Source of the DNA: a virus
Taxonomy: Duplodnaviria > Heunggongvirae > Uroviricota > Caudoviricetes
DNA length: 10,975 nt
IMG/VR virus record: IMGVR_UViG_2545824708_000027
Coordinates: 1-10,975 of that record
Reading direction: 5' to 3' (one strand)
Positions 7,308 to 8,388 of the stretch are shown one piece after another. Made by a program: the position numbers and the translations under genes. The notes beneath the pieces are model-generated. The model did no database searches. It saw only the letters and a program-made list of their open reading frames with translations, and was not told the origin of the DNA. Every line of letters starts with the position of its first letter. Position 1 is the stretch's first letter.

Positions 7308-8114
7308 ATGACCACTATTACCAAAGAACGTATTGAATTGTTCATTAAAAATCCGCTTGAAAACGGGCTTACCCGTGGTGAACAAATGGAACTGGCACGG
7401 ATTGCGCTGGCATCGCTGGAAGCAGATCCAGTTAAACGAGTTAACTCAGATCAGATGCGCCGAGTCTGCTTAGAAGCTAATCGCCATTTAGATAAATATG
7501 ACGCGATGGCGAAAGAGGTAAATAAGTTGCTTGGACGCATCGCCCCGCCAGCGCCGGTAGTGCCGGAAGAAGCAACTCCGGAAAACGTAGAAATGCTCTC
7601 TGGCTATGTTTCAACGTACAAATTAACCGATAGCGAGCGCGATATTGCTGCCGAAATATGGAACGCCTGCCGCGCTGCCATGCTTCATAGTGCCGAACCT
7701 GCAAGTAATCATGAAGAGTTGCCGCTTGATTATCTCCAAGGTCAAAAAGATGGTCTTGAATGGGCTGCGCAGCTTGCAGAAGCAAATCACCCACAAACTG
7801 GCGACTGGCTTTACGATGACCCGCTGGAGCTGGCTAAAGCTATCAGAAAAGGTCCTGACATGCCCGAATTCGATGGACCAACTCCGGTAACTCCGGATGG
7901 TTGGATAAGCTGTAGTGAGCGAATGCCGGATACCAAAACAGCCGTTCTTGTTGCCAAGGAGTTTGATAGGAAAGGTGACTGGCGAATGAAATGGGCGACT
8001 TACATCCCGGGGCATCCTGACGCTAATGATGGGTGGATAATTCCTGGGGCGTCGTGGAAACCGTCACACTGGATGCCGCTACCAGAACCGCCTCAGGAGG
8101 TTAACCGTGGCTAA
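7308..8114 (+). CDS. Phage protein with C-terminal DUF551-like domain (268 aa)
   Basis: ORF track; SD AAGGAG 6 nt upstream; C-terminal tryptophan-rich segment DGWISCSERMPDTKTAVLV...GDWRMKW...DGWIIPGASWKPSHWMPLPEPP resembles the DUF551 pattern (memory). Confidence 0.65.
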   Translation: MTTITKERIELFIKNPLENGLTRGEQMELARIALASLEADPVKRVNSDQMRRVCLEANRHLDKYDAMAKEVNKLLGRIAPPAPVVPEEATPENVEMLSGYVSTYKLTDSERDIAAEIWNACRAAMLHSAEPASNHEELPLDYLQGQKDGLEWAAQLAEANHPQTGDWLYDDPLELAKAIRKGPDMPEFDGPTPVTPDGWISCSERMPDTKTAVLVAKEFDRKGDWRMKWATYIPGHPDANDGWIIPGASWKPSHWMPLPEPPQEVNRG

Positions 8115-8388
8115 CCTGCAACTTGCCGTCAAAGGTGAATACTTCGATGCCATGATTCGCGGAGAGAAAACGGAAGAGTATCGCCTGTGTAATGACTATT
8201 GGAATAAGCGAATTATGTTCAGGGAGTATGACCGCCTGATTATCACAAAGGGATATCCGAAGCGCGACGACTCCAGTCGCAGAATTGATGTTCCGTATGG
8301 AGGATATGAAGTGAAAACAATCACACCCCCCCACTTCGGTGATAAACCGGTAAAGGTATACGCGATAAAGGTGAATATCAATTGCTAA
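8107..8388 (+). CDS. ASCH/DUF3850-like (PUA-fold) small protein, 93 aa, GTG start
   Basis: ORF track; GTG 8107 with strong SD AGGAGG (8094-8099); overlaps the previous gene by 8 nt; N-terminal motif VKGEYFDAMIRGEKTEEYR resembles the ASCH-type G-x-K-x-x-E-x-R signature. Confidence 0.55.
   Translation: MANLQLAVKGEYFDAMIRGEKTEEYRLCNDYWNKRIMFREYDRLIITKGYPKRDDSSRRIDVPYGGYEVKTITPPHFGDKPVKVYAIKVNINC

Follow-up and report, generated by a model that had tools for sequence, protein, structure and literature searches.

Do two phage genes that overlap by a few nucleotides (nt), with a strong ribosome-binding site (RBS) ahead of the second, work together, or do they merely stand side by side? The question is raised by a gene pair at positions 7308–8388 of the IMG/VR virus record IMGVR_UViG_2545824708_000027, of which we analysed one stretch of 10,975 nt (hereafter the window). 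Gene 1 encodes a protein of 268 amino acids (aa) ending in a DUF551 domain, and gene 2 a 93-aa ASCH-like protein. An initial annotation made from the sequence alone had proposed a co-translated pair that could act on host or phage nucleic acid. The analysis presented here points in another direction: the two genes are probably independent accessory-gene cassettes from the lambdoid ‘ea’ (exo-xis type) pool, sitting in a polycistronic string of early genes, some 0.9 kb short of the right end (torI, attR) of a hybrid prophage. The genes and the signals at their borders are:

7308–8114, plus strand: gene 1 open reading frame (ORF), ATG start, 268 aa (ORF list)
8107–8388, plus strand: gene 2 ORF, GTG start, 93 aa (ORF list)
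8107–8114, plus strand: 8-nt overlap GTGGCTAA, holding the gene 2 start codon and the gene 1 stop codon
8095–8100, plus strand: Shine-Dalgarno (SD) sequence AGGAGG of gene 2, with a 6-nt spacer to the GTG
7296–7301, plus strand: SD sequence AAGGAG of gene 1, overlapping the stop codon TAA (7295–7297) of a preceding 87-aa gene

Both are genuine genes. A GenBank entry from Escherichia coli 179100 (P0121) is 100% identical to the 268-aa protein, and the 93-aa gene is under purifying selection, with dN/dS values of 0.06–0.17 against nine relatives of 73–98% identity. The annotated start of gene 2 is supported by the alignment of its residues 1–92 to profile positions 1–92 of phrog_625 and by homologues that begin with MANLQLAV. 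As initially described, the last 8 nt of gene 1 overlap the GTG start of gene 2 behind a strong AGGAGG: the ORF list and a reading of the sequence place the GTG at 8107–8109 and the TAA of gene 1 at 8112–8114. Three minus-strand ORFs (7477–7794, 7623–8015 and 8101–8418) were regarded as shadows of the conserved plus-strand genes. An Rfam search detected no RNA family within the gene pair, and neither protein has an NCBIfam match.

The next question is whether DUF551 and ASCH genes travel together. This was assessed in two samples, each consisting of the 80 best-scoring loci for its query: 80 viral contigs with ASCH proteins at least 92% identical, 78 of which have an upstream ORF, and 80 contigs with a DUF551 domain. 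The gene upstream of ASCH ends in DUF551 in 23 of the 78 loci; in the others it encodes a DUF4752 protein (21), an unknown 86/134-aa protein (13), a DksA/TraR zinc finger (9), a Lar-type restriction-alleviation protein (4), an EaA-like protein with a different C-terminus (3, one carrying DUF550) or some other product (5). Seen from the other side, ASCH directly follows the DUF551 gene in 6 of 80 loci (at −8) and lies one gene further on in 7 of 80, and the remaining DUF551 genes are followed by at least 10 different genes or by none. Restricting the count to DUF551 domains whose core is of the window's type (at least 82% identity) leaves ASCH downstream in 2 of 25 loci. A species-level sample of 12 loci, taken from a contig scan with alignment A1, gives a similar picture, with DUF551 preceding ASCH in 2 of the 11 loci that have an upstream ORF. 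In E. coli 602687, the same 268-aa gene (98.5% DNA identity, frameshifted) is followed by unrelated genes and no ASCH, and its homology to the window stops at the junction of gene 1 and gene 2. Conversely, Ralstonia phage RSA1 has an ASCH gene but lacks DUF551, and one Jerseyvirus shows the reverse order, with ASCH followed by a DUF551 fragment. The co-occurrence and co-inheritance expected of an obligate two-gene system are thus not seen, adjacency amounting to 23/78, 6/80 and 2/11 in the three sets. The initial annotation had itself named independent occurrence in related phages as the result that would speak against the pair, and independent occurrence is what the comparison across phages found. 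Since the genes occur independently in related phages, a pair that acts together is unsupported.

But why, then, is the overlap so precise? It is no chance feature, because the ASCH start overlaps the preceding stop codon in 75 of the 78 related loci: 51 overlap by 8 nt with a GTG start (GTGGCTAA), and the other 24 by 1 nt with an ATG start (TAATG/TGATG). The 8-nt overlap is identical whatever the upstream gene, the junction GCAGGAGGTTAACCGTGGCTAAC recurs in many loci, and at least six unrelated upstream genes are linked to ASCH by this junction or an equivalent one. The protein tails tell the same story. Ahead of ASCH, the ending ...QEVNRG is found on DUF551 proteins, on Lar-like proteins (...KATPQEVNRG) and on others (...APQLEVNRG), whereas other endings (QEVK, QEVNQ, QEVRQ, QEAK and the like) are found where a DUF551 gene has a different neighbour. 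The final six codons of gene 1, together with its stop, thus come from the ASCH cassette. Its RBS and first codons, CAG GAG GTT AAC C GTG GCT AA, read as the end of gene 1, whose TAA is supplied by ASCH codons 2–3 (GCT AAC). Thus, the overlap, the SD sequence and the stop codon of gene 1 together make up the 5′ junction of the ASCH cassette. In addition, the codons for the conserved C-terminus PPQE(V) of DUF551, CCn CAG GAG GTn (window 8088–8100), are themselves the SD sequence of the next gene; in 43 of 73 DUF551 loci with a called downstream ORF, that ORF starts at −8, −4 or −1, counted from where the stop codon ends. The QEVNRG tail is also retained in 8 DUF551 genes where ASCH is absent, which suggests a past deletion of the ASCH cassette behind them.

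Functionally, the overlap would serve translational coupling and tight packing in a polycistronic early operon, so that ASCH could be expressed through coupling to any gene that happens to precede it, and the conserved junction may act as a recombination joint for cassette exchange. We infer that the overlap is not a marker of a protein partnership.

What do the two cassettes encode? The Trp-rich C-terminus of DUF551 type proposed for gene 1 was confirmed by a profile search well above the cut-off (77.2 bits versus a gathering cut-off of 22), which covers profile positions 1–68 of 68; the region holds 6 Trp in 66 residues, and precomputed results list the PF04448 hit for close homologues of the 268-aa protein as well. 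The domain and its parts are:

7899–8096, plus strand: DUF551 domain, aa 198–263 (Pfam PF04448, E 1.8e-21)
7878–7926, plus strand: conserved 5′ DNA block of DUF551, encoding PVTPDGWISCSERMP, common to about 100 fetched loci (clusters of blastn high-scoring segment pairs, HSPs)
7927–8063, plus strand: variable DUF551 core cassette, here of the DTKTAVLVAKEFDRKGDWRMKWATYIPGHPDANDGWIIPGASWKP type (alignment)
8064–8100, plus strand: conserved 3′ DNA block of DUF551, encoding SHWMPLPEPPQEV; its final codons CAG GAG G are the SD sequence of gene 2

The flanks of the domain, WISCSERMP and (T/S)HWMPLPEPPQE, are near-invariant and are conserved at the DNA level too. Between them, 104 domains fall into 15 mutually unrelated core types of 38–65 residues, which suggests that cores are exchanged by recombination within the conserved flanks. 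DUF551 is predicted to be beta-rich, with strands at 211–219, 224–232 and 254–257 (predicted local distance difference test score, pLDDT, of 57–71 in this region), and a search of PDB sequences with the DUF551 profile returned nothing meaningful. As a working mechanism, DUF551 would be a portable binding module, whose swapped cores could redirect the N-terminal modules attached to it towards a target of host or phage origin.

The remainder of gene 1 was initially described as an unrelated N-terminal domain. It is not a single domain; instead, the alignment of 42 homologues and the end points of HSPs resolve it into a chain of short modules of EaA/Ea22 type:

7308–8114, plus strand: gene 1 as a whole, a mosaic EaA/Ea22-type early accessory protein with a DUF551 end (Pfam; PHROG 60/924/5117/660)
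7308–7424, plus strand: Module A, aa 1–39 (MTTITKERIELFIKN...ELARIALASLEA), a conserved N-terminal leader common to many EaA-like proteins (42-homologue alignment)
7425–7589, plus strand: Module B, aa 40–79, predicted helical, with the Pro-rich linker APPAPVVPEEATPEN (alignment; low-confidence model)
7590–7877, plus strand: Module C, aa ~95–133 (...IWNACRAAMLHSAEP), and Module D, aa 134–190 (ELPLDYLQGQKDGLEWAAQLAEANHPQTGDWLYDDPLELAKAIRKGPDMPEF), with no family match

The four PHROGs are families of unknown function, and residues 1–190 match no Pfam family, DUF551 being the sole Pfam match of the protein. Mosaic breakpoints coincide with the module borders: against 160 fetched loci, HSPs end at 7386/7428 near the border of Module A and at 7656 and 7704 near those of Modules C and D, and megablast pieces break at query positions 352 and 575. 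One case of module exchange is the relative P0219, which carries PF04447 together with PF04448: a DUF550 dATP/dGTP pyrophosphohydrolase module stands there in place of Module B. The 268-aa protein has no PF04447 (DUF550) match, the module of P0219 being replaced by a 40-residue segment in the alignment. It likewise has no Ead_Ea22 (PF13935) match at E ≤ 1, whereas relatives from loci such as L003 do match.

Gene 2 requires a more careful reading. Its main features are:

8107–8388, plus strand: gene 2 as a whole, a single-domain ASCH-like (PUA-like beta-barrel) protein, PHROG 625
8161–8184, plus strand: ASCH pocket motif G19-E-K21-T-E-E24-Y-R26 (GxKxxExR; homologue conservation)
8326–8328, plus strand: codon CCC for Pro74 (H74P), within ACA CCC CCC CAC, a run of seven C

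The 93-aa protein aligns along its full length with PHROG 625 (E 6.9e-49), 451 word-indexed homologues are mostly labelled ‘ASCH domain-containing protein’ in their sources, and an exhaustive profile search found 1225 representative clusters of the family. The assignment to an ASCH/PUA-like fold, made initially from the sequence alone, fares differently depending on the method: the predicted fold and the motif support it, but the Pfam profile does not. Pfam ASCH (PF04266) scores 16.1 bits against a cut-off of 21.2 (E 0.019, profile positions 1–58 of 103). Matches at E ≤ 1 occur in 18 of 32 close homologues (best E 0.002), all sub-threshold, and matches at E ≤ 0.01 in 8 of 86 distant homologues (best E 0.001), insufficient for membership. 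Searches of PDB sequences with the 93-aa protein and with the profiles A1 and A4 gave nothing meaningful, and hhalign of the family profile A4 against K-12 YqfB aligned residues 10–27 alone, without significance (E 0.16).

The AlphaFold2 model of the protein has a pLDDT of 86, with 3 of 5 models poor. It shows a small mixed beta-barrel with helix alpha1 between beta1 and beta2, as in ASCH/PUA-like proteins, and its best Foldseek matches are ASCH structures (3iuw, ZmASCH 5gus, 2z0t, 1xne and YqfB; probability 0.85–0.97). The ASCH signature GxKxxExR lies in the alpha1-beta2 region and lines a cavity (PMC6803910); that of gene 2 falls in the corresponding region of the model (H10–17, E23–27). Across 86 diverse homologues, K21 is invariant and G19, E24 and R26 are each at least 90% conserved. 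The catalytic pocket has been described as K21/E24/R26 in human EOLA1 and as K21/T24/R26 in YqfB (preprint 10.64898/2026.08.01.741249). With Glu24 instead of Thr or Ser, gene 2 departs from the YqfB-type triad and resembles the Trip4/EOLA1 clade. W32, R35, G49-Y50-P51, H74 and F77-G78 are conserved specifically within the family. Judged by its predicted fold and its motif, gene 2 is best described as a member of a distinct minimal ASCH-like family outside the reach of the Pfam model. By analogy with its relatives, the K21/E24/R26 pocket would bind a flipped-out, probably modified, base or nucleoside, which could be hydrolysed in the manner of an N4-acylcytidine amidohydrolase, as YqfB and EOLA1 do with N4-acetylcytidine (ac4C), or read on RNA.

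Longer members of the family were scanned with Pfam for informative fusions, which yielded merely Ead_Ea22 (in P0242) and weak ASCH/DUF3850 matches; P0241 and P0242 were ruled out as fusions, being in-frame read-throughs across the same junction (...RRRLTVANLQ). Zinc-ribbon modules of the CxxC...CxxC kind (Lar_restr_allev, DksA/TraR) often occur within or before members of the ASCH-like family, for example in proteins P0281, P0268, P0332, P0357 and P0324 and at loci L006, L008, L043, L070 and L033. This hints at a recurrent zinc-ribbon partner of the family, although some cases may be gene-calling read-throughs.

The copy of ASCH in the window carries a further peculiarity. Position 74 is His in 80 of 80 close viral relatives, in 31 of 31 other rows of alignment A1 and in 78 of 85 other rows of A4, and it is Pro here. 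The window's ASCH protein may be impaired. The run of seven C could also be an assembly or sequencing error of the draft assembly, arising through a single A-to-C change.

How do these genes compare with known systems? Both families are already catalogued, with the RefSeq names ‘DUF551 domain-containing protein’ and ‘ASCH domain-containing protein’, and the arrangement has been annotated before in phage HK022, where the DUF551-ending gene HK022_35 (‘Homolog of P22 EaA C-term half’) is followed by the 94-aa ASCH-like gene HK022_34 with the identical 8-nt overlap. Comparable pairs occur in the Stx phages VT2-Sakai (H0075/H0074) and ST2-8624 and in phage Sf11. The HK022-type pair shares about 95% DNA identity with window positions 7883–8379 and is found in the early region, a short way ahead of xis. 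HK022_35 differs in being 121 aa long and in lacking Modules A–D. The setting differs too: in HK022 the pair belongs to the leftward pL operon beside xis-int, whereas in the window it stands at the int-distal end of the prophage, between the replication genes and torI. The P22 EaA-type protein P0219 (DUF550+DUF551) shares the leader, the linkers, Modules C and D and DUF551 with gene 1, at 60% identity over the full length; in the window protein, the helical 40-residue segment that replaces DUF550 leaves no recognisable catalytic domain. The Ea22 family of Lambda and Stx phages is likewise made up of mosaic exo-xis accessory proteins with an N-terminal segment, a helical middle and an exchangeable C-terminus. 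Its V2 variant carries DUF551, described as a portable domain (PMC10834534), and some ASCH-linked relatives carry Ead_Ea22 together with DUF551. A pro-lysogenic role has been shown for Ea22. The window protein has no PF13935 match.

In E. coli K-12, YfdS is a 120-aa DUF551 protein of CPS-53/KplE1, found at the equivalent place of the argW prophage, a few genes before torI; it matches the window protein weakly in pairwise alignment (25% identity, E 0.06). Mutants in yfdS are reported to be sensitive to H2O2, and overdose of yfdQRS to inhibit replication initiation (PMC4776307). YfdT, which follows YfdS, was considered as a counterpart of ASCH and ruled out, as it has no similarity to it. On the side of gene 2, the ASCH proteins 3IUW, PH0355 (2Z0T) of P. 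horikoshii, YqfB, EOLA1 and ZmASCH of Z. mobilis share the predicted barrel with alpha1 between beta1 and beta2, and 3IUW from Enterococcus faecalis is similar in size. K21/E24/R26 of gene 2 are numbered exactly as in EOLA1, while YqfB differs by its T24; similarity to the known ASCH proteins stays below the threshold of every profile tried.

The window is an exact substring of E. coli 179100 contig APZJ01000054.1. The element itself, a hybrid prophage, occupies the argW site and has TorI and attR of the KplE1/CPS-53 type. Its left part (1–7349) is about 94% identical to Rac/Qin-like prophages that adjoin potC in other E. coli strains, and carries the DicF RNA, a cI-like repressor, cro, a YdaT-family protein, replication genes, DUF1627 and DUF977. 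In a megablast search with the whole window, this homology ends at 7349, 42 nt into gene 1 and within Module A, while the right end (about 8950–9288) is nearly identical to that of K-12 CPS-53/KplE1. From the sequence comparison, the element looks like a recombinant of two prophage types with the joint inside the EaA-like gene. Its landmarks outside the gene pair are:

175–226, minus strand: DicF antisense small RNA (Rfam RF00039, 75.8 bits versus a gathering score of 48)
8998–9198, plus strand: torI, excisionase/recombination directionality factor, 66/66 identical to K-12 TorI
about 9274–9288, plus strand: attR core, copy of the argW 3′ end (CTGCAGGGGACACCA; alignment with the K-12 CPS-53 right end)

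DicF fits a left arm of dicB/Qin-Rac type in the source contig. The rightward gene string that holds genes 1 and 2 ends with torI, and attR follows about 75 nt further on; the prophage ends there, with csc sucrose genes in place of K-12 dsdC. A right end of this type explains why no integrase comes after the excisionase-like gene: in the annotated CPS-53 of K-12, intS sits at the other prophage end. By the gene list of the source contig and the CPS-53 alignment, the stretch from the early genes to attR is free of structural and lysis genes. TorI matches the PADLOC model mad1 (E 7.6e-14), probably merely through its AlpA/Xis-type helix-turn-helix. Between gene 2 and a 63-aa gene (8501–8692) lies a 112-nt AT-rich spacer (8389–8500) with TTGCAT ... 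TATAAT-like hexamers; these hexamers were not flagged by a consensus scan. Terminator-like hairpins are found at 8734–8753 and 8930–8949, ahead of torI.

Could the pair nevertheless be something other than two independent cassettes? A dedicated two-gene module, in which coupled translation would supply both proteins in fixed proportion for joint action on host or phage nucleic acid, is in our estimate highly improbable. Such a module would account for the 8-nt overlap with its strong SD, for the place of both genes in the same early region and for the recurrence of the adjacency in HK022, in the Stx phages VT2-Sakai and ST2-8624 and in 23 of 78 relatives. It is at odds with the finding that most ASCH genes join other upstream partners by similar junctions, that most DUF551 genes have other downstream genes, that the same gene 1 (98.5% DNA identity) stands without ASCH in E. 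coli 602687, that the same core type has ASCH in just 2 of 25 loci, and that the arrangement is missing around the distant ASCH relatives of Ralstonia and Jersey-type phages. Alternatively, gene 2 could be an anti-restriction protein or reader of modified DNA instead of an enzyme for RNA or nucleosides, similar to the PUA-like sensors of type IV restriction systems and often accompanied by a Lar-type zinc ribbon. We consider this unlikely: neither protein matches a PADLOC-DB 2.0 defence model at E ≤ 0.1, no nuclease or glycosylase domain is attached, and the top structural matches are small stand-alone ASCH proteins and YqfB, not DNA readers. The idea draws on Lar_restr_allev genes upstream of ASCH in 4 of 78 loci and DksA/TraR zinc fingers in 9 of 78, as well as on N-terminal CxxC...CxxC extensions of family members; these extensions are, however, unmatched by Pfam Lar and may be read-throughs like P0241 and P0242. 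It also draws on a 168-aa BFVD ‘Restriction alleviation protein’ that matches the model (E 1e-5, TM 0.74), on a listing that counts ASCH as a sensor domain of modification-dependent nucleases (PMC12191111) and on an ASCH-like 5-hydroxymethylcytosine DNA glycosylase in the literature.

A more sober possibility is that the locus is decaying cargo, that is, a defective hybrid prophage with an ASCH protein that has lost its near-invariant His and nothing functional left. The H74P change, unique among 80 close and 85 distant relatives, the lack of structural and lysis genes between the early genes and attR, and the recombinant build with homology ending 42 nt inside gene 1 all fit this scenario, but we hold it to be somewhat unlikely, as both reading frames are intact, ASCH outside position 74 is 98% identical to relatives under purifying selection, and P74 could be a sequencing error in the C7 run of a draft assembly. 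More speculative, and in our view very unlikely as a whole, is the idea that DUF551 is a recombination-diversified recognition domain and ASCH an enzyme or reader for modified bases, their adjacency reflecting a shared role in the arms race. If this were true, swaps of the DUF551 core would retarget variable N-terminal effector modules, and ASCH would act on ac4C in tRNA or on a modified DNA base, for host takeover or anti-restriction.

Several points nonetheless count against reading the genes as independent cassettes with the functions outlined above. DUF551-ASCH adjacency, at 29% of close ASCH relatives, is far above random gene order, and a loose functional preference for the adjacency is possible. 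The samples are the 80 top-scoring loci per query and contain redundancy, which makes the percentages rough. The ASCH membership of gene 2 comes from a predicted structure for which 3 of 5 AlphaFold2 models were poor, all sequence matches being sub-threshold; the fold of DUF551 and of the N-terminal modules is not readable from the AlphaFold2 model of the whole 268-aa protein, which was built on the 42-sequence alignment and, with a pLDDT of 44, was too poor for a fold search. The mechanistic part for both genes is drawn from knowledge of their families.

Finally, we would like to place the two independent cassettes into the context of lambdoid early regions. There, an overlapping start and stop codon with a strong SD sequence is no evidence of a functional pair, because the junction moves together with the downstream cassette, which it couples to any upstream gene. 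Mildly new are the build of DUF551, with conserved flanks around a variable core, the junction borne by ASCH, and H74P in the copy described here. Perhaps of interest to phage biologists is also the ASCH-like family itself: a large family of 1225 clusters, under purifying selection and missed by the Pfam ASCH model.

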